A stretch of 32,000 bases of DNA from Zestosphaera tikiterensis (GTDB taxonomy: Archaea > Thermoproteota > Thermoprotei_A > Sulfolobales > NBVN01): the NCBI GenBank assembly GCA_003056265.1, contig NBVN01000002.1:612032-644031 (forward strand), written 5' to 3'. Positions 12,231 to 22,823 of the stretch are shown piece after piece (position 1 is the stretch's first letter; every line of letters begins with the position of its first letter). Position numbers and translations under genes: made by a program. The notes under the pieces were generated by a model that was not told the DNA's origin, ran no database searches, and saw nothing but the letters and a program-made list of their open reading frames with translations.

Positions 12231-12297
12231 CCTCTGAAATACTTATACAGCGTTAAAATAAAAACTTTTGCTCAATCGATTAAGTGGGTGGTTTAAG

Positions 12298-13071
12298 GTG
12301 GTTAAGCTTTACGTGCATAGACTCTGCTTATCTAGCTATACACTCTATAAAGAACTTAAGGCTAGAGGCACCTTAGATAAGGTTAAGTTCGTCGACACCT
12401 CAAACAGCTTAAAAGCGGTTAAGAAAGGTGTTTTCAGCGTTCCAGCGTTGGAAACTCAAGGCATGTTAGTAGCTGTAGACCCGATAGAGGTGGAGTTAGT
12501 TGAAGCCGCCGCGTTAAACGAAGACTTAAGTAGGTTCGCCCCAAAAACAGTTGAGGAAGCGGTTGAAGCTTTCTTTAAAAGCCTCTACGCAAGCGGTTAC
12601 CTATCATGTGTTTCCTTAATCCACGGGCTGAAGCCAATCCTTAAAGACTTAAGCACGGTGAGACTCCTAGCTAAGTTAAGGTTAGGCACCACGTTAAAAA
12701 CCTCTGAAGTTATGGAAGGCATACTTAAAAAGATGGAGGCAAGCGAAGATGAAGTAAGGAGTAAGTTAGCGTATATATGCTTTAAAAACTACGTTAGAGA
12801 ACATATATGGTTAAACCCTAAAGCAAGCTATGAAGACATACGAAACACATTAAACGAAAGCAACGTAACATCATGGCTACTCGCTAAAACCTCAGTAGGA
12901 AGAACCTTAATACCGAACAACCTAAACACGGTTAAGAAAGCAGCCAACGAATTAATTAAACTAGGGAATAACAAACTCGAAACAACAACAGCAAAAACCA
13001 AAGAAGAAGTAGAAACCCTATCGAAAGACATAGAATTCCAGAAATACATAAAAACAAAAAGAAGCAGTTAA
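12298..13071 (+). CDS. Hypothetical protein with N-terminal thioredoxin-fold-like segment (CxxS) and K/N/T/E-rich tail
   Basis: The ORF track starts at TTG 12268. I prefer the in-frame GTG 12298 (MVKLYVHRLCLSSY...) because a TATA-like box (taaaataaaaa, ~12253-12263) sits immediately before and abutting the TTG and about 35 nt ahead of the GTG. KLYVHRLCLSSY...FSVPAL resembles a glutaredoxin/thioredoxin fold with CxxS and a cis-Pro motif. Confidence 0.5.
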   Translation: MVKLYVHRLCLSSYTLYKELKARGTLDKVKFVDTSNSLKAVKKGVFSVPALETQGMLVAVDPIEVELVEAAALNEDLSRFAPKTVEEAVEAFFKSLYASGYLSCVSLIHGLKPILKDLSTVRLLAKLRLGTTLKTSEVMEGILKKMEASEDEVRSKLAYICFKNYVREHIWLNPKASYEDIRNTLNESNVTSWLLAKTSVGRTLIPNNLNTVKKAANELIKLGNNKLETTTAKTKEEVETLSKDIEFQKYIKTKRSS

Positions 13072-13172: not shown

Positions 13173-13754
13173 ATGAACAAAAACCAGAAAAGAACGTTGT
13201 TGGCGCTTGCGGCCCTAGCTATAGCCGTAGCTGTGGTAAACGCCAGCGTCTTCGCATACTACCAGATAGACGTGACAATAACTGGTGTGCAACCACCGGT
13301 AGTCTTTGTTGCAGGTAACAACGCTAACAAGGCAGACCTAGGAGCGGGCAACAGCATTGCTGTAGCTCTAGGAGCGAACAGCACCTCAGCTGCAATAACG
13401 ATCCACCCAACCTATCAGCACACATACTACCACGACGTACTCAAAGTCAATAACATCGATAGAAATAAAGCCTATTACGTAGCGTTCAAAGTCACATCAG
13501 CTATATCCAGCTGGCCCTCTGATTCGGTTGCGAAGATGATTATATACAGTAGTGGCGGCTCGAAGGTTACGGATGTAGACCTCAAAGCTAATAGTGATAC
13601 GGGCTGGATAGGGCTTCTGGATGCTAACGACTATTACAGGATCGATTTCTACATATACTACCCGGAGGGTAACCAGCTACCGGGCGGAACAGTGCAAGTT
13701 CAGCTGATATATAGCCCGCAGAACCCATCGACAATACCGACATTACCATCGTAG
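13173..13754 (+). CDS. Secreted beta-rich protein with SPase-I-type signal peptide; candidate TasA/AbpA-like filament (major) subunit
   Basis: 193-aa ORF with a good SD (GAGGT). The signal peptide MNKNQKRTLLALAALAIAVAVVNA|SVFAYY obeys the -3/-1 rule (V-N-A). The mature N-terminus resembles SipW-cognate signal peptide/mature junctions (..AxFAY[FY]..). The protein is beta-strand-rich with N-x-S/T sequons (NAS, NST). A signal peptidase I gene lies two genes downstream. Leu codon use is atypical (TTA 1 of 13 by hand count). Confidence 0.75.
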   Translation: MNKNQKRTLLALAALAIAVAVVNASVFAYYQIDVTITGVQPPVVFVAGNNANKADLGAGNSIAVALGANSTSAAITIHPTYQHTYYHDVLKVNNIDRNKAYYVAFKVTSAISSWPSDSVAKMIIYSSGGSKVTDVDLKANSDTGWIGLLDANDYYRIDFYIYYPEGNQLPGGTVQVQLIYSPQNPSTIPTLPS

Positions 13755-13766
13755 CGGTGAGTAGAG

Positions 13767-14812
13767 ATGAAGTACCCTAAACTAAAACTAAGTTTTTTTA
13801 CATATTAGTTCCGTCACTCTTAGTCCTCACCATATCCTCTGTCTACGCCTCCGTATTCGTTTACTACCCCCTCTCAACAAATATTCAGGGGGTTAGCCCT
13901 CCGGTCGTCTTTCAGGCTGTTTCCGGCATACCTGCTACGATATCTCCTTGGGGTACATACGCAAGTGTATCTCTATCGCTACCCCTAATCGTTGTGAACG
14001 CCAACTTCTCCGGAACGCTAAGCCCGTGGACTACTATCTCGAGTATCAGTCAAAGTGCATGGAGTCCCGCATCTGGTGTTCAGGGAGCATCTGATGGATA
14101 TGTTGCGAGCTTCTCTGAAACTAATAGAGACGTTGATACTGGTTACGGTGAGATATACCAAGAGATATTTATACCGAGTGTAGCCGGCTCGAGTAGCTAT
14201 ACGGTAACTGTCTACATAAGATTCCAGATTAGTCGGTTTCAGGCTAGGGGAGGCGGTAGTATCTCTATAACGTACGGGCTCTTTAACCCTGCCACAAATT
14301 CATGGGTATGTGATCAAAGCAATACATATCAAGGAACAACAGGCTGGACTTCCTATTCTGTTAGTTGCTCCATAAGTGTGTCGGGTAGCTACAGGCTTCG
14401 CGCCTACATAACTGTAACCAACACGCGGACGTTCACCATTTATATAGATTACCTCTACATCTCGGTGTATAGCTCCAGCAGTGCTGTCCTCAACGTGTAC
14501 AACCGAGACTCTCAGCCCTACTATGCTAGACTGATGCTAAATTCTGTCACAGGGTTGAATCCTCAGAACCTGTTCTGCGAGATAGGCATAGGGGACTCGC
14601 AGCCCATACAGATAAGAAGCGGGCAGATAGTTGCGGGCGAAACGTCGGAGGTTGTCCTCTCTTCAGGTAGCTTCACACCGATAAATGTGAAATGCCTGAC
14701 AACGTCTAGAGGTAGCTACACGTTGACTCTAACTCTGAGGTATTGCACGGTACCCGGAGGTAACGGTGTATGTGTCTACTACCCCTTAACCATAGTTTTA
14801 AGTTCTGGGTAA
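13767..14812 (+). CDS. Secreted paralog of the 13173 gene carrying a lectin/CBM-like jelly-roll region, interrupted by a -1 frameshift at a T7 tract (candidate minor subunit or adhesin; possibly a pseudogene or sequencing error)
   Basis: ATG 13767 is preceded by a GGTGA SD (13756-13760) and encodes MKYPKLKLSFF, then hits TAG at 13806. The frame of the 13994..14812 ORF is open back to 13781. That frame encodes YILVPSLLVLTISSVYA|SVFVYYPLSTNIQGVSPPVVF, a signal peptide plus the same mature N-terminus as the upstream gene. The two frames join at T7 (13793-13799). The region 13781-13993 has no ATG, GTG or TTG in this frame. Confidence 0.65.
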
Positions 14813-14818
14813 TGTAGC

Positions 14819-15970
14819 ATGAAGTACCTCGACTATATAGCTCTTGGTGTTATTCTACTCCTGATCGTAGGTAGGTTGGTTTGGTTTCCCGTAGCTCTTT
14901 TCGTGGTTTCCGGGGATTCCATGCTTCCAACTCTTAAGACTGGGGATTTCGTTTTAGGTGTTGCTACGTATTTAAGTGGTTATGGAGTTGGTGATGTTGT
15001 TGTTTGGTATGCTACGGTAACGCATGGAACTATACATAGGGTTGTTAACGTTTCTGAAGGGTATGTAGTAACTAAAGGTGATAATAACCCGTTGCCAGAT
15101 CCTTCAATACCCGCTTCGTTCGTTAAGTATAAGGTCGTGCTCCACATACCTAGGGAGTTTTGGTTTCCCGCCGCCCTCACGTTAGCTGCTTTCTATATCT
15201 TCACGAAGCGTAGGGAGATTGCCTCAACGTTTAAGACCATCACACCGGGTGAGATGAGGGTGGCTTACGCAGTATTCATATTTTTCGTAGTTGTTGACGT
15301 AGCTACTGTGTTTTTAGTGGGTGTTCAGTACTTCAGCCCGGCAACGGTTTTAATTAAGCCTTCGGTTGAGTTGAGGAGTATGGAAGTCTCTAAAGATGGG
15401 GGTAGTATCTACTTAACTTTCACAGTTAAAAACGCTGAGCCTCTAAACGTAAGTTTATGTGAGGTTACCTTACTAAACGCTACCTTCCCATGTTTAACGC
15501 ATCGTTTAGTGGGTTCCGTAGCTGTTGTTGAAGTGCCTAGGGAGGCGTATAGCTACGCCTATAGAGCTTCAAACAACTACATAACTTACGTAAGCTTAAG
15601 GCTAAACATAACGTTCGATAAGGGGTGGGTTGAGGGGAGGTATCCATACACTATAAACTGGAGGGCGCTTCAAGTATCGGTGATTAACAACTCAGTAGTT
15701 ATTAACAACCCAAACTACATTCAATTCAACTTAACTGAAGTTAAAGTGATTTATATGGGGGTTAAGCAACCCTTCAACACACCTGAGGTTTTGAAGATCG
15801 AGTACTTAAGCGATTACGTCGTGGAGGCTGGGAAGTCCTTAACGATAGATGTGATGCCTGTAAACGGCAGTAGATATGCTTACGTAGAGTTTAAATACGA
15901 ATTTAAGTTCTGGCCTTACGGCGGGGGTGGGGTAGTTCTTGAGAGGAGGAGGGTTGACTTCAAAGGTTAA
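14819..15970 (+). CDS. Archaeal/ER-type (SipW-like, S26B) signal peptidase I fused to a ~270-aa membrane-anchored C-terminal extension
   Basis: The first ~110 aa contain an N-terminal TM segment, box B VSGDSMLPTL (Ser nucleophile), box D GTIHRVV (His, not Lys) and box E TKGDNNPLPD. These are followed by two TM segments and a ~200-aa beta-rich region with many N-x-S/T sequons (NVS, NAT, NIT, NNS, NLT, NGS). The gene starts 6 nt after the preceding stop. Confidence 0.8.
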   Translation: MKYLDYIALGVILLLIVGRLVWFPVALFVVSGDSMLPTLKTGDFVLGVATYLSGYGVGDVVVWYATVTHGTIHRVVNVSEGYVVTKGDNNPLPDPSIPASFVKYKVVLHIPREFWFPAALTLAAFYIFTKRREIASTFKTITPGEMRVAYAVFIFFVVVDVATVFLVGVQYFSPATVLIKPSVELRSMEVSKDGGSIYLTFTVKNAEPLNVSLCEVTLLNATFPCLTHRLVGSVAVVEVPREAYSYAYRASNNYITYVSLRLNITFDKGWVEGRYPYTINWRALQVSVINNSVVINNPNYIQFNLTEVKVIYMGVKQPFNTPEVLKIEYLSDYVVEAGKSLTIDVMPVNGSRYAYVEFKYEFKFWPYGGGGVVLERRRVDFKG

Positions 15971-15971
15971 G

Positions 15972-16547
15972 ATGCTTTACGTACTGGCCTGCGTTTCCGC
16001 TACGTTCTTAGGGTTGACGTTAATAACGTCTGTAGTGACGCCTATCTACCGTTTCCACGGCGTTGTGGAGGGTGAGGTCGCTCTCTCATGGTATCTACTG
16101 AGCTACTATGATGAGGTAGTGCGTGTTGCTTCGTTAGATGCTGTGAGGGTTTTAACCATTCCTTTATTTATATTATCCACGTTTTTAATCGCTTCTTCAG
16201 CTTATGCCTTACTAACGTATGTTTTTAAGAAGTTTAACTCCTTACTTTCGGCGGCGGAGTTGCTTTTAGGCGGTGGTTTAGCCTCGATAACCATGAGTAC
16301 GTTACTACTCTCAATAGTTAGGATTTTAACGACTGAAGTAAGTGGGTTAAGCGTTGATAACGTATTCTATACGTCGGCAGGCTTGGTAAACTTCGGTAGG
16401 ACATACTACTACGTAAACAGCCTAACTTCAACCCTCCTAAACCCCTTAACGGTTATGGCGTTAAACACGATTAACGCTTTACTTGCTGGCGCTACCTACG
16501 TATTGCTGACTTCCGAGGTAGGGACTCAAGAGGAAGGGAGTTCTTGA
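15972..16547 (+). CDS. Integral membrane protein (about 4 TM), unknown function
   Basis: The ORF track starts at TTG 15939. The in-frame ATG 15972 lies 1 nt after the SPase stop (TAA 15968-15970) and begins directly with a hydrophobic segment (MLYVLACVSATFLGLTLITSVV). Four hydrophobic stretches are present and the tail is acidic. Confidence 0.6.
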   Translation: MLYVLACVSATFLGLTLITSVVTPIYRFHGVVEGEVALSWYLLSYYDEVVRVASLDAVRVLTIPLFILSTFLIASSAYALLTYVFKKFNSLLSAAELLLGGGLASITMSTLLLSIVRILTTEVSGLSVDNVFYTSAGLVNFGRTYYYVNSLTSTLLNPLTVMALNTINALLAGATYVLLTSEVGTQEEGSS

Positions 16548-16607: not shown

Positions 16608-17549
16608 GTGGGGTTTCTGACTTCCTTGTCTAGCGTTATATTTGATAGGCTTTCCAACCTACTTATTGAGAAGGGTTTAGAGATTAAGTTGATTGTGTCC
16701 TGCCTTATAGCTAGAGGTCACGTACTTCTTGAGGGTGTTCCAGGCGTTGCTAAGACTTCAATGGCTAAATCCGTTGCTAAGCTCTTCAGCCTTAACTTCA
16801 GAAGGGTTCAAATGACTCCGGACCTACTCCCTTTAGATATCGTGGGTTACTACGTCTACGACCAAAGAACTGGTGAGTTTAGGTTTAAGCAAGGACCTAT
16901 ATTCACTAACATACTCTTAGTTGATGAGATAAATAGGGCTTCCCCAAGAACTCAAAGTGCTTTACTGGAGGCTATGCAGGAAAGGCAAGTAACTATAGAG
17001 GGGAGTACGTTTAAGCTTGAGGAGCCTTTCTTAGTGATAGCCACTCAAAACCCTATAGAGATGGAGGGTGTTTTCCCGCTGCCTGAAGCTCAGTTAGATA
17101 GGTTCTTAGCTAAGGTTGAGACAGGATATTTAAGCAGTAACGGATTTAAAGAAATGCTTAAGAGGATTGACGAGATTGAAAGAGGTGTTGAGGAACTTAA
17201 GCCCGTGATGTCTCGCGAGGACCTCCTAACGTTAATGAATAGAGTTAAAGAAGTCAGGGTTGATGACTCGATATACGATTACGTAGTAAACATAGTTGAG
17301 GAAACTAGGAAACACCCAGCGGTTAAGTTAGGTGGGTCGCCTAGGGCTGGGATAGCGATGCTCAGACTAGCTAAGGCTTGGGCCCTTATAGAAGGGAGGG
17401 ATTACGTAATACCTGACGACGTCAAGGCTGTAGCGACTGCGGCTTTAACGCATAGGTTGATACTTAAGCCGGAGTATGAGGTTGAAGGCGTTACATCAAC
17501 TCAAGTCATTAACGACGTGTTAAGTAAGGTTCCGGTGCCTAAACCTTGA
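16608..17549 (+). CDS. MoxR-family AAA+ ATPase
   Basis: 313-aa ORF with Walker A (LLEGVPGVAKTS), Walker B (ILLVDEINRASPRTQSALLEAMQERQVT), the ATQNP block, LPEAQLDRF, and the C-terminal GGSPRAG lid typical of MoxR. A TATA-like ctatatattctttattaat lies 30-45 nt upstream of the GTG start. Confidence 0.9.
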   Translation: MGFLTSLSSVIFDRLSNLLIEKGLEIKLIVSCLIARGHVLLEGVPGVAKTSMAKSVAKLFSLNFRRVQMTPDLLPLDIVGYYVYDQRTGEFRFKQGPIFTNILLVDEINRASPRTQSALLEAMQERQVTIEGSTFKLEEPFLVIATQNPIEMEGVFPLPEAQLDRFLAKVETGYLSSNGFKEMLKRIDEIERGVEELKPVMSREDLLTLMNRVKEVRVDDSIYDYVVNIVEETRKHPAVKLGGSPRAGIAMLRLAKAWALIEGRDYVIPDDVKAVATAALTHRLILKPEYEVEGVTSTQVINDVLSKVPVPKP

Positions 17550-18694
17550 AAACACGTTTGAAGATAGTGGCGTTGTCTTTAGCTACGCTACTCCTACTTA
17601 ACCTACTCAACTTAGCAGTTACTCAAGCTCAGGAAGTCCCTAGACACACCCCTGGGTTCCCAGAAAGCAGTTTAGAGGGTTTAACGCCTTTCTTAAGTGA
17701 ATGGCAGAAAATCCTCAACATGTTGTCTAACGCTACGTTAAGTGATGTTTTAAGTAACGCATCAGCTAAGGAAGAGCTTCAAAACTACGTTAAAGAGCTT
17801 GAAGCTGAGAATAAGTTAACTTTAGAGGAGAGGGAAGCTTTAAAAGCTACTTTAAGCGGGGACGTAAGCGTTGATGAGTTGATGAAGAACATACGTAATG
17901 AGGACTTACGTAATGTATTGAATGAGCTTCTTAACATGAGTAAGGAAGGCCTACTTAAAAGCGAGGATTTAATGAAGTATTTAAGTATGGTTGCTAAGAT
18001 GCGTGAAGAGGGCTATATCTCAATAAGCGATTACATATCTGCTTTAAACATTATGAAGACTTTAACGAGGGATGAAGGAGTGCTCACAGCCATAGATAGT
18101 GAGTTACTTAAGTCTATGATTAACTTACTAGCTAGCGCTGGGAGCACGCCTGAATTTACAGCACTGCCTTCAATACCTTCGGGGAGCCCGTCCTTAAGCC
18201 TTAAAACCCCTGAGGTCGGTAGCACATCAAGATACTTAGAGGGGTTTAAAATACCCTCCATATCCGTGGCTTTCCCCTCACTGTCTCCGCTAGCTCTTCA
18301 AGACGTTCTACAATACGTGGTCTTAGCTATTGTTTTGATTGTCGTTTTTTCCTTAGGTTTTCTCTTTATTAGAAGGTTTAGAGAACCCATAGCTCGGGCG
18401 TTCTCTAAAGCCGTTTTAAGTAGGGGTGAGGTAGGTTTAGAAGGGCTTCCCGAACCCATCAAGTATTATTGGAGTTCCGTTAAGGCTGTAGAGACATACA
18501 CGAAGATTAGGAAGTTAGATAACGTAACTCATAGGGAGTACTTAAGTAGGGTATCGCAGTCTTTAGGTGATTTAGTTGAGGAGTTTAAGAAAGTAACTCA
18601 AGCCTACGAGCTCGTTAGGTTTGGCGGTTCAGTAAGTGATGAAGTGGTTAAGGAAGCTAAAGAGAGTTATGTGATGTTGGTGAGGAGGTTGTGA
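17546..18694 (+). CDS. Bitopic membrane protein: signal peptide, extracytoplasmic helical domain, S/P-rich linker, TM, cytoplasmic DUF4129-like domain
   Basis: The TTG start overlaps the MoxR stop (TTGA). The N-terminus is MKTRLKIVALSLATLLLLNLLNLAVTQAQE. The TM segment is VLQYVVLAIVLIVVFSLGFLFI. The C-terminal THREYLSRV...AYELVRFGG fits the DUF4129 pattern (T.rEy.......l..lt..Ye..rYg). Confidence 0.7.
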   Translation: MKTRLKIVALSLATLLLLNLLNLAVTQAQEVPRHTPGFPESSLEGLTPFLSEWQKILNMLSNATLSDVLSNASAKEELQNYVKELEAENKLTLEEREALKATLSGDVSVDELMKNIRNEDLRNVLNELLNMSKEGLLKSEDLMKYLSMVAKMREEGYISISDYISALNIMKTLTRDEGVLTAIDSELLKSMINLLASAGSTPEFTALPSIPSGSPSLSLKTPEVGSTSRYLEGFKIPSISVAFPSLSPLALQDVLQYVVLAIVLIVVFSLGFLFIRRFREPIARAFSKAVLSRGEVGLEGLPEPIKYYWSSVKAVETYTKIRKLDNVTHREYLSRVSQSLGDLVEEFKKVTQAYELVRFGGSVSDEVVKEAKESYVMLVRRL

Positions 18695-19824
18695 AAGTCG
18701 GTGAGTTAATTCTTAAGGTAGTTCCTAGGTTGGTTGCTTTAGCTGTTCTCTGGGATTCCATAACAATCTTAACTCAAGAGCTGCCTAAGGTTACCGCCCC
18801 TCAAGCCTTCATCTTAAGCCTTATCTCAACCCCTTCAAACATGCTTTTAACGGCGTCTTCAGTAGTTGCTGTGTTAACGGTTGCTACGTCCTCACCAACG
18901 CTTTACGTGTTTTCCGTGATACTCCTAGCAGTCGGTAGAGGTGTTTTAGGCTACGCCATATCCCCTTCAGTAATCGCCGGCTTGGCTCTAGTCCTTATAC
19001 TGGATACGTTGGCCTTAACTTACAGAAGCGGTCAAAGAACGTCGGTAAGGATGGGTGGGAAAGCTTTTACATACGGTGTTTTAAGCGTTGCGTTTGTTTT
19101 CTTGGGGGTTATTACGGCCTCCCTATTCTTCAGTCAATACTTAACGACTGTTGTCACAACCATATTGAGCGTTTCGAAGTATAGCGTCGTTAAGTACGGT
19201 GTCCTAGCTTCCTTAATCGATAATCCATTGATTAAATTATGCGTTGTTGTTTTGATTGTGTTGTTCCTATATGAGGTGATAGTCAACGTATTCGACACGG
19301 CCTCCATCTACCTAAGGCCTTCGAGGAAAGTCTGTTTATCAACCCTTAAGAACCGCTCTGATATAGACGTAGTTATTGAGAGGCCCCTACAAACTCTATT
19401 CACGTTAATATTAGCTAGTTTAGTAGCTCCCGTTATTTACGTGTTTTTAATCGATATAATCACCCCTAAGTTAGTCGCGGTGCTCACACCGTTAAGTGGG
19501 TTTTTAAAGAATCCCTACGTAGCTGCTGCGTTAAGCTTAGCTACGTATGCATTAGCCTTCGCTTTAACGAAGCCTTTAATCTCCTCGTTAACTGTGGAGG
19601 AGGTTAAGTTAAGGAACTTAACCTTGCCAGCCACTTTAAGCTTGTTCATTTATTTAAGCGCTGTTTTAATCTCCTACGATAGGGGCTTAACCTTAAGTCA
19701 AAGCTTCTTAAGTCCGGACTTCACGACATTAAGCAACACTCTCTATAGAGGTTATTTAAACTTCTACACGTCTTTATTTTATATTCTTGAAATAATACCT
19801 AAGCTTGTGGGGGCTGCGCCATGA
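18691..19824 (+). CDS. Polytopic integral membrane protein (about 9-10 TM), unknown function
   Basis: The GTG start overlaps the upstream stop (GTGA) and a GGAGG motif lies just upstream. The 377-aa protein is almost entirely hydrophobic segments. Confidence 0.7.
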   Translation: MKVGELILKVVPRLVALAVLWDSITILTQELPKVTAPQAFILSLISTPSNMLLTASSVVAVLTVATSSPTLYVFSVILLAVGRGVLGYAISPSVIAGLALVLILDTLALTYRSGQRTSVRMGGKAFTYGVLSVAFVFLGVITASLFFSQYLTTVVTTILSVSKYSVVKYGVLASLIDNPLIKLCVVVLIVLFLYEVIVNVFDTASIYLRPSRKVCLSTLKNRSDIDVVIERPLQTLFTLILASLVAPVIYVFLIDIITPKLVAVLTPLSGFLKNPYVAAALSLATYALAFALTKPLISSLTVEEVKLRNLTLPATLSLFIYLSAVLISYDRGLTLSQSFLSPDFTTLSNTLYRGYLNFYTSLFYILEIIPKLVGAAP

Positions 19825-20078
19825 GTAAATACATACCTAAACTTAAAATTAATAAAGCGTATCTATACCTCGCCATCGGTTTAGCCTTACTGGTGTTATC
19901 TATGATGTTCTTCTTCATGTCGGTTGGGTATATGGAGAGAGCCTTGATAAGTACGTCACTATTGACGGCGTTTATAGGCTTTTCACTCCTTTCAAGCTCG
20001 CTTTACGTGCTGAGGCTTTCCGCTTACGTATATGGTGTTGAGGCTGAAGGACGTGAAGAAACTAAAGCTGGTAAGTAG
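19821..20078 (+). CDS. Small 2-TM membrane protein
   Basis: The ATG overlaps the upstream stop (ATGA). The 85-aa protein has two hydrophobic helices and a charged tail. Confidence 0.55.
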   Translation: MSKYIPKLKINKAYLYLAIGLALLVLSMMFFFMSVGYMERALISTSLLTAFIGFSLLSSSLYVLRLSAYVYGVEAEGREETKAGK

Positions 20079-21492
20079 TTGGGTCGTTATAGGGTTGGTG
20101 GTTTTAGCTTTAATAGCCCTACTCGAGAAAGGGCCTCCGATAGCTTACGTTTTTTCAGGGGCTTCCCCCGCCAGCCCCATGTCATTCGGTACTTACGAAT
20201 TCTACCTACTCGTTAGGGAGAGACATCAAGCAACGGCTGTTTTCAGGCTTGACGACTTAAAACTGCCCAGCAACTCAAGATGTGTTTACGTGTTGATATC
20301 TCCGGATATCCCATACACGTTGGAGGAGGGCAGGCACGTAGCTAAAGCGTTAAGTCAATGCGTGAGTTACGCAGCTTTAATAGCTGACGAGTGGGGAACT
20401 TCAAACAATGTTTTAATAGCGTTAAACACTTCGGTGAGGGTGGTTGGTGATTTAGTTTTAGATGCGTTGCGAACTCCATACCCGCAAGCGCAGATGCGAG
20501 TTATAGGTAGGTATGAGAACACCTACGAGATCACTTTAGACATAGCTTCGGAAGTTTCGGGAGGTACTCCTTCAGGGTTTGTAGTGAATGGTTATGTAGT
20601 GACGGGAGGTAATGCCCCACCGATTAAGCGGGACGTGATTTACGTAGCTGCTTACGAATCCGTTAAGGACAACCCCGTATACGTGATTGGCGACGGATCC
20701 ATATTCTTAAATCAAGTCCTTACGTCTAAGGAGGGTGGGCGGTATAGGGAGTTTGCTCTAAGCGTTGTTGAAGGGCTTTGCGGCGGTCAACCCAACTGTT
20801 ACGTAGTTTTCGACGGTTCACACCATAGTGGCGTTAAAGCAAGTGACTTGCTTGCGAGACCTCAGTTAATAAGCAACTACGTTAAGAACCCTCAAGACCT
20901 CTTCTACGTTATAACGCCTATGATCTCGTTAATATTACACCCTACTTTCTGGCTCCCACCCCTAGCTAGTTGGTTGAATAGGTTTACGGGCTTCATATTC
21001 GGTAACGAGCTTTTCTACTCTTCAGCGTTGTTGTTTGCTGTAGTCCTCACATACTACTTAGTTAAGGGAAGATTCCCATCAACTTCAGATTTTAGACTTC
21101 CTGAGCAAAGTGAGGTTGAGTTATTCGCTACTTCAGACATTAGAAACGCTGTACTCGCCGGTAGGGTTAAGTTAGGTAAGGAAGACTTCATAAAGCTTTA
21201 CGATATGGTTAACTCCGTGTTGGTTGGTGTTGCTGGTGTGGAGTTAAGCGATGAGAAAGCGCTTCAACTCTTAAGTAAGGCTGTAGGCGCTGAAGCTTCG
21301 TTAAAGTATTTTAAAGAGATGAATAAACTCTACGTTAAAGTTAAGAAACGTAAGTTACTCCCTATAGTCCTGTCTTGGGATAGGAGGGTTAGGAAGTTAA
21401 TAACGCAGAGTGAGGAGGTTCTTAAGGCTTTAGGTACGTCGTTACAGTCCGAGAGAGGAGTTGAGTATGTGTTCTTGAGGTTCGCAAGATGA
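20032..21492 (+). CDS. Membrane protein with extracytoplasmic DUF4350-like domain (N-terminal TM, ~280-aa ectodomain, second TM, cytoplasmic helical tail)
   Basis: 486-aa ORF overlapping the previous gene by up to 47 nt (alternative GTG start at 20053). The topology and the GDGSIFLNQ block resemble DUF4350/GldG-like domains, which typically occur in MoxR-DUF58 operons. The family call is by eye only. Confidence 0.6.
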   Translation: MVLRLKDVKKLKLVSSWVVIGLVVLALIALLEKGPPIAYVFSGASPASPMSFGTYEFYLLVRERHQATAVFRLDDLKLPSNSRCVYVLISPDIPYTLEEGRHVAKALSQCVSYAALIADEWGTSNNVLIALNTSVRVVGDLVLDALRTPYPQAQMRVIGRYENTYEITLDIASEVSGGTPSGFVVNGYVVTGGNAPPIKRDVIYVAAYESVKDNPVYVIGDGSIFLNQVLTSKEGGRYREFALSVVEGLCGGQPNCYVVFDGSHHSGVKASDLLARPQLISNYVKNPQDLFYVITPMISLILHPTFWLPPLASWLNRFTGFIFGNELFYSSALLFAVVLTYYLVKGRFPSTSDFRLPEQSEVELFATSDIRNAVLAGRVKLGKEDFIKLYDMVNSVLVGVAGVELSDEKALQLLSKAVGAEASLKYFKEMNKLYVKVKKRKLLPIVLSWDRRVRKLITQSEEVLKALGTSLQSERGVEYVFLRFAR

Positions 21493-22823
21493 GTTCTGAA
21501 GCCTTAACTCAAGTTTCAGGAACTCAAAGATTGACCGCCGTCTTACTAATAACAGCTGCTTTACTTGTGTTCTCGGTGTTCGTCAATATAGACTTCCTAA
21601 TGCCGGCTATGGCTTTAGTTGCTTTAATAGCTTCAACACGTGGTTACGCAGTCATATCGTATTTAGCGTTAAGCAAGTGTGAGATTAAAACCAACGCCTC
21701 AGTTACTGTGGGTGGGAAGCCCTTAACGTATTCAATAGAGATATTCAATAAGGGGTTAATACCTATAGCCTTGGTTGAGATCACCTTAAATTACTCGCAA
21801 AACCTAAGGCTTGTTAAAGGCTCTAAAGCAGCTCTCTTAATCATACCGCCTAAAAGCTCCGTAACGTATGAAGTGGTTTTCAACGGACGTGTTGGGAAGC
21901 ATCGCGTAGGCCCTCTTAAAGCTGTTGTTAGAGACCCTCTAGGGTTATTCAGGAGTTCCGAACTGGAGTTGGTTAAGGCTGAGGAAGTCGCTATACAGCC
22001 ACCCGCGCGTGAAGTCATGATTAGGAAGGTTTGGACCCACACGAGGTCTGCCGGCGTGGTTAGGTCTAGAGAGCCTGGGTTAGGTGTTGAGCTCTACGGC
22101 GTGCGTGAGTTTAGGCCGGGCGACGATTTAAGGAGGGTTGTTTGGAGGACTTTAGCGTCAAGCAATAGGTTATCCGTTAAGGAGATGGAGAGGGAAACGT
22201 ATCAAAGCATATTCTTCGTTGTTGAGGCAAGCCCTCAAATGTTTTACGGTCCTTACGGGGGGACTCCATACGAACACGCTAGTGAGGTGATAGCGTCTAT
22301 ATCAGCGTACTTAGCTAGGAGAGGCGATCTAATGTCTTTAGTTGTGGCAACTCAAGACGGGGTCTTAACATCGGGTAAGCCGTCTAGAGGGCGTAACGCA
22401 TACGTTAAAATCTCTAAAACGTTATCGATGGTTCCATACATCGCTGACTCCGTAGACAGAAATCTACTTTTAAAGAAAGCCCTTAAAGAAATTTTAAATA
22501 GCTTACCTAGGGAGAGGAACCTAATATTCGTTTTCACGACGGCAGGGGATGAAACCTACCTTAAAGGTTTGCTAGAGTTCATCAATAAGTTAAGGAGTCT
22601 TAATAACGACGTATACGTTGCGATACCTTTAACTATTGCTTACGAGGTTAGGGGGCTTCCGCCATGGGCTCAAGCAATCTATAGAGTTAAACTCTACGAT
22701 AAAGTTAAGGATGAGTTGGAATTCGCTCGAAAGTTAGTTAAGTATAGGGCTAGAGTAATAGCTATAGGCCCTCAATACATGCCTGAAACCATAGTTAGGA
22801 TCGTGGAAGCTAGACGTAGTTAA
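21489..22823 (+). CDS. DUF58 family protein (VWA-like partner of MoxR) with two N-terminal TM helices
   Basis: The ATG overlaps the upstream stop (ATGA). The hallmark DUF58 motif GVREFRPGDDLRRVVWRTLASSNRLSVKEME is present (compare [YF]rpGD..r.i.Wk.sar...l.vke). It is followed by a VWA-like alpha/beta region. Confidence 0.85.
   Translation: MSSEALTQVSGTQRLTAVLLITAALLVFSVFVNIDFLMPAMALVALIASTRGYAVISYLALSKCEIKTNASVTVGGKPLTYSIEIFNKGLIPIALVEITLNYSQNLRLVKGSKAALLIIPPKSSVTYEVVFNGRVGKHRVGPLKAVVRDPLGLFRSSELELVKAEEVAIQPPAREVMIRKVWTHTRSAGVVRSREPGLGVELYGVREFRPGDDLRRVVWRTLASSNRLSVKEMERETYQSIFFVVEASPQMFYGPYGGTPYEHASEVIASISAYLARRGDLMSLVVATQDGVLTSGKPSRGRNAYVKISKTLSMVPYIADSVDRNLLLKKALKEILNSLPRERNLIFVFTTAGDETYLKGLLEFINKLRSLNNDVYVAIPLTIAYEVRGLPPWAQAIYRVKLYDKVKDELEFARKLVKYRARVIAIGPQYMPETIVRIVEARRS

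Follow-up and report, generated by a model that had tools for sequence, protein, structure and literature searches.

Why should an archaeal signal peptidase gene stand directly behind the genes of two secreted proteins? The question is raised by a 32,000-nucleotide (nt) stretch of the genome of Zestosphaera tikiterensis (GCA_003056265.1, contig NBVN01000002.1, positions 612,032 to 644,031 of the forward strand), here called the window, whose own numbering is used throughout. A first-pass annotation of positions 13173-16547, made from the letters alone, had proposed a module resembling the TasA fibre protein and SipW peptidase of Bacillus, with two secreted paralogs and a dedicated type I signal peptidase (SPase I). 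The features lie where that annotation had put them, and all the sequence boxes and junctions that it quoted are present; the range also holds a fourth gene, which it had left unnamed. The four genes, A-B-C-D, are all on the + strand, separated by intergenic gaps of 12, 6 and 1 nt. Gene A (13173..13754) encodes a predicted major subunit of 193 amino acids (aa), gene B (13767..14812) a predicted minor or terminal subunit, gene C (14819..15970) a two-domain SPase I of 383 aa, and gene D (15972..16547, from an ATG at 15972; an alternative TTG at 15939 would overlap C) a protein with four transmembrane (TM) helices predicted from hydropathy.

The folds, homologies, conserved catalytic residues and synteny reported below were obtained by computation. 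On this evidence we consider it probable that the genes form an operon for a Sec-dependent, donor-strand-complemented filament of the thread type, equipped with a dedicated peptidase of the TafD type. The operon is best read as TasA/SipW-like in its logic and as a member of neither family.

Protein A resembles the thread subunit of Sulfolobus

Protein A is predicted to be secreted and is rich in beta-strands. Its signal peptide (aa 1-24, 13173-13244, + strand) ends at the junction VNA^SVFAYY (the caret marks the cleavage site), followed by a free N-terminal donor-strand region (aa 25-42, 13245-13298, +) and a beta-sandwich body (aa 43-181, +). The AlphaFold (AF2) model of A (pLDDT 89.5, pTM 0.76) consists of a signal-peptide helix, 18 unstructured residues and a beta-sandwich, with no secondary structure at aa 24-42. 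Comparison of the model with the PDB by Foldseek gave as first match 7pnb_A, the Saci_0406 thread subunit (E 2.1e-7, TM-score 0.62/0.65, 192 columns), and as second match 7ueg_A, the Pyrobaculum protein AbpA (E 1.3e-5, TM-score 0.54/0.57), followed by the cannulae CanA and Hyper2 and then by chaperone-usher pilins. The best structural matches of the modelled A are all strand-donation fibres, and its fold is the one seen in subunits of fibres built by donor-strand exchange. The fold check proposed in the first-pass annotation thus returned a beta-sandwich like those of the thread subunit and AbpA, preceded by a stretch that is free at the N-terminus.

Sequence comparisons pointed to the same protein. 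A phmmer search with A alone matched 7pnb_A with E 0.0021, and a profile of 25 A-family proteins found 7pnb_A as its sole significant match in the PDB (E 5.5e-5, residues 1-186 onto 1-199), with no sequence-level match to AbpA. Alignment of the A family with Saci_0406 by hhalign gave a probability of 93.7% (E 1.9e-7, 180 columns). Because structure match and sequence comparisons agree on Saci_0406, A is placed, as a distant member, in the thread branch of the group that has been named the 'TasA superfamily' (10.64898/2026.01.04.697558).

A hypothetical protein of Z. tikiterensis is 100% identical to A. Thirty relatives of A, nearly all metagenomic, were found in an index of 5.8 billion proteins. 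Their alignment shows the junction A^x-x-F-x-Y to be invariant and two blocks, GSNANQPDL and IHPTYQxTYY, to be conserved. The first-pass annotation described A and B as a Cys- and sequon-containing pair; the Cys-rich one is B, and mature A has no cysteine and a single sequon (N69).

The Saci_0406 thread (cluster saci_0404-0409; PDB 7PNB; PMC9715654) is thus both the best structural and the only significant PDB sequence match of A, and the two have much in common. Each starts with a Sec signal peptide that SPase I removes (in A by prediction), and shares with the other a beta-sandwich head and an N-terminal donor strand of the form x-V-[IF]-x-Y-Y…V-x-P-P-x-x-F, and in both loci an adjacent larger paralog is proposed as cap, Saci_0405 there and B here; Saci_0405 is reported in the thread literature at lower expression. 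In threads the N-terminal amine is linked to Asn57 of subunit n+2 by an isopeptide bond. The partner corresponding to Asn57 is not assignable in A from the alignment: N57 of Saci_0406 aligns to G59/N60 of A, where Asn is common and not invariant, and N50 and D55 of A are invariant. A peptidase has not been recognised in the thread cluster, and the functions of saci_0404 as well as of saci_0407/0408 have been called elusive (PMC11607397).

An 82-aa fragment of Saci_0406 found no match in the protein index or the genome contigs, low-degeneracy peptide patterns included, and the protein index and genome collection searched seem to lack or mask the canonical thread locus. Full-length Saci_0406 searched against all fetched loci returned remote A-family matches only, with no canonical DVIYYY pilin beside a C-like gene.

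Protein C is a predicted two-domain signal peptidase

The SPase I boxes noted in the first-pass annotation, SGDSM (Ser34), IHRV (His73) and KGDNNP (Asp88), are present in the SPase domain of C (aa 25-110, 14891-15148, + strand). Among 25 relatives, Ser34, His73, Asn90 and Asp94 are invariant and Asp88 is nearly invariant. C passes the NCBIfam model TIGR02228 'sigpep_I_arch' with 54.6 bits (cut-off 51.85) over its first ~100 residues, and its family profile matched human SEC11A in the PDB (E 9e-6), with the SGxSMxP, HRV and TKGDNN boxes aligned. By these sequence features C is an endoplasmic reticulum (ER)/archaeal-type Ser/His/Asp signal peptidase, with no Ser/Lys dyad. The AF2 model of C (pLDDT 84.5) shows a first membrane helix (TM1, aa 2-17), the catalytic domain, a second and a third membrane helix (aa 112-129 and 145-166) and two beta-sandwich domains (aa 182-380, 15362-15958, +). 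The beta-sandwiches are rich in sequons and for this reason are probably outside the cell. In all, three TM helices are predicted for C, with no C-terminal anchor.

C has the architecture of TafD of Haloarcula, in which a peptidase domain at the N-terminus (Ser40, His83, Arg84) is followed by membrane helices and by an immunoglobulin (Ig)-like domain at the C-terminus. Deletion of TafD abolishes the Tafi fimbriae and leaves TafA unprocessed (PMC11821415). In the Tafi systems of Haloarcula and Natrinema and their relatives in Thermococcales and Archaeoglobales, the TafD-type peptidase gene stands beside the genes of strand-donation pilins, as C does here (PMC11821415, PMC12337348). TafD and C share the N-terminal SPase domain, the membrane helices and the extracytoplasmic Ig-like C-terminal part. 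Haloarchaeal TafD-like peptidases have 39% identity to C in the SPase domain, with no similarity detected in the C-terminal part. A two-domain S24/S26 protein of Thermococcus gorgonarius (P0166) aligned with C across 302 columns, among them those of the first Ig-like domain (hhalign, 99.8%).

These likenesses raise the possibility that A-D is itself a Sec-dependent Tafi system, with a pilin of the TafE/TafA type and membership in the family of haloarchaeal and Thermococcales Tat-fimbriae, and TafE homologs with Sec signals have been reported in Sulfolobales (PMC12337348). The pilin argues otherwise. As a comparison set for TafD we used a haloarchaeal Tafi-type locus (L054, 5134-8306) that encodes a pilin with a twin-arginine translocation (Tat) signal (MQRRKF…), a TafD-like peptidase of 376 aa and a downstream protein of 418 aa. 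The hhalign probability of the A family against this pilin, the single Tafi-type pilin compared, was 0.9%, against 93.7% for Saci_0406, and no Tafi structure was among the top 50 fold matches of A. The pilin families differ, and export is by Tat there and, as predicted, by Sec here. TafD has four TM helices and a partner with DUF5305 (TafG) (PMC11821415), whereas C has three and is accompanied, in the partner position, by the unrelated protein D with its four; no DUF5305/TafG gene was found in any open reading frame (ORF) of the window, the A-D module included. We consider a Tafi system quite unlikely.

A true TapA-SipW-TasA system, with A and B as TasA/camelysin proteins and C as an ortholog of SipW, is still less likely, to the point of being extremely improbable. 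The logic is the same: the tapA-sipW-tasA operon of Bacillus subtilis unites a fibre subunit, a strand-providing accessory protein and a dedicated ER/archaeal-type peptidase, the class to which C also belongs by prediction, and assembles by donor-strand exchange, as A-D would by our proposal. Threads, AbpA, Tafi and TasA have moreover been placed in one superfamily named after TasA (10.64898/2026.01.04.697558). However, neither A nor B matched Pfam Peptidase_M73 (PF12389, TasA/camelysin) or the NCBIfam SipW-cognate signal-peptide model TIGR04088 even at E<=1, no TasA chain was among the top 50 Foldseek matches of A, and C fails the SipW model NF046067 (20.8 bits, cut-off 190) and carries an additional membrane and Ig-like part of 270 residues that SipW lacks. 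Together these outcomes refute the assignment at the family level. The TasA-like label survives at the level of the superfamily and falls at that of the TasA and SipW families; the SipW-cognate look ascribed to the A and B junctions is not supported. What stands is C as an archaeal/ER-type SPase I, supported by TIGR02228, the conserved residues and the SEC11A alignment, and locked by synteny to the A and B genes.

In P0166 (394 aa), the two-domain homolog of C named above, a Gly occupies the position of the catalytic His of C (ILGRV for IHRV in the hhalign alignment), and this protein may be a non-catalytic or differently wired relative. Sulfolobales metagenome-assembled genomes contain, within one 90% cluster, a fused peptidase of 355 aa (P0242) and an SPase-only form of 134 aa (P0186), and Ig-domain-only forms of about 240 aa that correspond to the C-terminal part of C also occur (P0136, P0138, P0148). 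Such split and fused forms recall saci_0407 and saci_0408, which are separate or fused in different S. acidocaldarius strains. Three further contigs (L084, L086 and L087; 5932-7515) encode a protein of 527 aa in which an S24/S26 peptidase domain is joined to DUF5305 (E 2.8e-10), in agreement with the literature, where occasional fusions between TafG-like modules and the peptidase are mentioned.

Synteny and spread of the module

Exact look-up and a scan of metagenomes with the alignment of C supplied the locus contexts, which comprise 41 full-length C-like genes. An A-family gene was found upstream of C on the same strand in 20/20 loci with at least 2.4 kb of upstream sequence, and a D-like gene directly downstream of C in 37/37 loci with at least 650 nt of downstream sequence. 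The A...C-D arrangement is far beyond chance. The first-pass annotation had viewed the peptidase gene as a copy embedded beside its candidate substrates, and had noted that neighbours varying among relatives would speak against this; the 20 testable loci all have A upstream, and the inner neighbours are constant while the outer flanks vary by locus.

Most loci have B between A and C; alternative orders are A-C-D-B (L007) and A-C-D with B elsewhere (L005). A 704-aa ORF in L007 was considered as a D-B fusion, and is better read as D followed by an in-frame B with its own signal peptide.

D has two Tyr-rich outer loops in addition to its predicted helices. Searches of A, B and D against Pfam and NCBIfam returned no family. 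An exhaustive profile search (E<=1e-30) found about 90 representatives of the C family at 50% identity, and its named members belong to Desulfurococcales, Zestosphaera sp., Sulfolobales, Thermoprotei and Brockarchaeota.

The synteny bears on whether A and B could be ordinary secreted or S-layer-associated glycoproteins that a general signal peptidase adjoins by chance. C does pass the model for general archaeal SPase I. Yet the A...C-D order is strict across orders between variable flanks, the significant fold matches of A are fibre subunits only, the donor-strand motif occurs within the window only in A and B, and the conserved extra domain of C is not found in the 140-185-aa peptidases of the same metagenomes. 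A separate abpX locus has been reported in Z. tikiterensis, and most such loci are said to have their own SPase I (10.64898/2026.01.04.697558). A chance neighbourhood of this kind is very unlikely.

Comparison with other strand-donation fibres

The second-best fold match of A comes from the bundling pili of Pyrobaculum calidifontis, built from AbpA and AbpB (7UEG; PMC9245690), which are likewise Sec-dependent and assemble by strand donation, with a larger accessory gene beside that of the pilin. The abpA locus is an eight-gene operon of a composition unlike that of A-D. As a parallel for a dedicated peptidase it does not serve, since its authors found none near abpA (PMC9245690).

The AbpX loci of Pyrodictium abyssi and others encode a fibre subunit, minor and tip subunits and a dedicated SPase I of the TIGR02228 type (10.64898/2026.01.04.697558). 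AbpX clusters near TasA, its peptidase has ten TM helices and an accessory protein contains DUF5305, and none of these occurs within the window. Because such an abpX fibre locus has been described in Z. tikiterensis NZ3, outside the window (10.64898/2026.01.04.697558), the organism probably has several fibre systems of this type.

Chaperone-usher pili are also held together by donor-strand complementation, with a terminal subunit whose groove has special properties, as is proposed here for B. Weak fold matches connect A with CfaB, Caf1 and FimA, and the ectodomain of C with FimC and CupB2, but with TM-scores of at most 0.35 these are not evidence of homology, and the locus differs in having no usher, no recognisable PapD-family chaperone and no outer membrane. 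A PapD-like chaperone was considered for the ectodomain of C and rejected, FimC and CupB2 appearing at Foldseek ranks 14 and 49 with TM-scores of at most 0.3.

Protein B is a paralog of A with a second, donor-strand-like segment

That A and B are paralogs, as the first-pass annotation had proposed, was borne out by hhalign comparison of the two families (98.3% probability, E 2e-14), which aligned A 62-183 onto B 216-328. B shares with A the signal-peptide junction, here VYA^SVFVYY, and the N-terminal strand, and by sequence the two are true paralogs. The signal peptide of B extends through A28, with cleavage before 13850, and is followed by the same donor-strand motif as in A, a variable insert, the pilin-like domain (aa 216-328, 14411-14749, + strand) and a C-terminal tail, GVCVYYPLTIVLS (aa 334-346, 14765..14803, +). 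Homologs of B, 340-700 aa long and next to A in related loci, have in common the A-type signal peptide and donor-strand motif, a variable middle and a conserved C-terminal domain. No Pfam or NCBIfam family was found in eight of these homologs, and a lectin-like nature of the insert, considered for B and the same eight proteins, is unsupported.

The segment GVCVYYPLTIVLS comes directly after the final strand that B has in common with A and a short turn rich in Gly, beyond the A-homologous region, and looks like a donor-strand mimic. A position-specific scoring matrix (PSSM) built solely from the mature N-termini of the A family scored it at 25.6, as compared with 32.8 for the N-terminus of B, and none of 200 shuffles reached 25.6. 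Across the window, high scores were obtained only at the N-termini of A and B and at this tail, the next best being 9.7. The equivalent segment was the best internal match of the matrix in 20 of 30 B proteins. In the related contig L088 the motif appears as GACVIYPLTVQL and is followed by an extra domain, which implies that it belongs to the pilin-like domain and not to the C-terminus as such.

The insertion site of the donor strand in threads lies between beta4 and beta12, the latter being the last strand (PMC9715654, supplement). Since insertion takes place beside the last strand, a hairpin returning along the last strand of B would fill B's own groove. The tail 334-346 therefore probably fills the acceptor groove of B in cis. 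A subunit filled in this way could donate a strand and not accept one, the property proposed for the Saci_0405 cap and for TapA/AbpB.

In the strain of L088, C is 96% identical at the nucleotide level to the gene in the window, and a comparison of L088 (1-984) with window positions 13829-14812 showed B to have no nucleotide-level alignment and a different domain order. The identity boundary falls at the B/C junction. The pattern suggests that B, as cap or adhesin, is replaced like a cassette between strains.

A T-tract interrupts the frame of B

The frame opened by the ATG of B (13767) meets a TAG at 13806-13808, 6 nt past a run of seven T residues (T7, U UUU UUU; 13793..13799, + strand). The body of B, with the remainder of the signal peptide and the VYA^SVFVYY junction, lies in the -1 frame, which is open to 14812. 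One extra base, or a -1 shift, at 13793-13799 yields 348 aa, as the first-pass annotation had assumed for its repaired product. The same T7 and frame break are present in two independent metagenome contigs of a diverged strain (L089, 1988-2040, and L090) with 96% mean column identity over the 260-nt stretch around the tract, and the break is therefore not an assembly error.

The run at 13793 is the only one of at least seven T on the + strand of the 32-kb window. Of 22 distinct loci, 19 have a run of at least six T no more than 90 nt past the stop codon of A; the background frequency is 0.032 runs per 90 nt. Other out-of-frame tracts are found in L028 (T6), L017 (T5, in a genome with 65% guanine plus cytosine), L036 (T8) and probably L001 (6227-6270). 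Among near-identical contigs, L045 and L032 have T8, out of frame, and L048 has T9, in frame; L045 and L048 come from one sample. L088 begins just past the tract and stands outside this comparison of tract lengths.

Such an interruption could mean that the locus is decaying, B being a pseudogene made by a one-base homopolymer deletion and A, with C and D, alone functional. Consistent with decay, the -1 frame has no in-frame ATG, GTG or TTG start that would retain the signal peptide, and no stimulatory RNA structure was found downstream of the T7 tract (Z-scores +0.5 and +1.2). However, the -1 frame has stayed open for 1 kb, the diverged strain has the same break with a ratio of nonsynonymous to synonymous polymorphism (pN/pS) of 0.29 over the 110 codons past the tract, out-of-frame tracts occur in at least four other lineages, and T8 and T9 variants coexist in one sample. 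The tract pattern fits switching or slippage better than decay, which we regard as unlikely.

Three candidate roles of the tract are compatible with the data. Archaeal RNA polymerase terminates at oligo-T, and the tract could be an attenuator placed after the gene of the major subunit, between A and B-C-D. It could also be a site of transcriptional or ribosomal slippage, or of phase variation of the cap at the DNA level.

Neighbouring genes

Directly upstream of A, positions 12268-13071 encode a 267-aa protein without a family match. The close strain has a 254-aa ORF at the corresponding position (L089, 515-1279), which is not present in more distant loci. Downstream, a separate + strand cluster (16608-22823) encodes a MoxR-type AAA_3 ATPase, a signal-peptide-bearing DUF4129 protein, a polytopic membrane protein, a protein of 486 aa that matches no family and a DUF58 protein, and is a typical MoxR/DUF58 operon. 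These genes were considered as part of the module and rejected: genes beyond A-D vary in every locus, and the MoxR, DUF4129 and DUF58 genes are not kept beside the module in any other locus.

Proposed assembly mechanism

The mechanism that we propose extends the thread, TasA/TapA and TafD precedents, by analogy, to the polymerisation of A, the specificity of C, a cap function of B and a platform function of D. Pre-A and pre-B would be exported by Sec and remain anchored in the membrane by their uncut signal peptides. C would then cleave both at the common A-x-A^S-V-F-x-Y-Y junction, freeing the N-terminal strand, and each A would fit its strand into the next A's open groove, producing a head-to-tail fibre. 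B, with its donor strand, variable insert and pilin-like domain, would sit at one fibre end as cap, initiator or adhesin, limited to that end because its own C-terminal strand probably fills its groove. The two Ig-like ectodomains of C and the four-helix protein D are candidates for a membrane platform, and the T-tract between A and the body of B could keep B, C and D far rarer than A.

Several points weigh against a thread-type filament operon. The similarity of A to Saci_0406 is remote, at 21-23% identity. Thread homologs are reported to have an invariant Asp24/YYY and identical first seven mature residues (10.1101/2022.04.26.489512), and this Asp plus YYY motif is replaced in the A family by [S/A/G]-V-F-x-Y-Y-P, none of whose members begins with Asp. 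The Ig-like domains of C matched only generic tandem Ig/FN3 proteins in Foldseek. In the window the frame of B is broken, and the protein may not be produced.

A bolder form of the proposal, to which we grant a real but clearly minor chance, makes C the assembly machine itself, with a tandem Ig module, tethered to the membrane and chaperone-like, that works with D, and the T-tract a homopolymer switch of B. C would then couple signal-peptide removal with the entry of the released strand into the next subunit, so that the fibre would grow from its base with no ATP, usher or soluble chaperone, tethered to the membrane by the uncut signal peptide of the last subunit. The Sulfolobus thread cluster would use the same device, saci_0407 and saci_0408 being a split C. 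The tract at the start of B would control the cap or adhesin through slipped-strand phase variation or transcriptional slippage. To our knowledge, homopolymer contingency loci have hardly been documented in archaea.

Implications for archaeal filaments

The use of dedicated peptidases by fibres of the TasA superfamily is already well known from SipW, TafD and the AbpX-linked enzyme. Thread and bundling-pilus clusters have been said to be without tafD and tafG homologs (PMC11821415), and our literature search found no paper in which a family of thread-type pilins is strictly tied to a peptidase of the TafD type. The locus described here ties such a pilin family to a TafD-type peptidase and a four-helix partner across Desulfurococcales, Sulfolobales, Thermoprotei and Brockarchaeota, and so joins two classes of fibre that have been treated as separate.

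The assembly of archaeal threads and bundling pili is an open question; for threads the pathway has been called unknown and the neighbouring genes inconclusive (PMC9715654, PMC11607397). C and D are concrete candidates for the assembly platform. The proposal predicts a self-complemented cap, a T-tract that sets or switches its expression, and rapid swapping of cap genes between strains. If saci_0407/0408 should prove to be a split C, a direct test would be possible in a genetically tractable organism.

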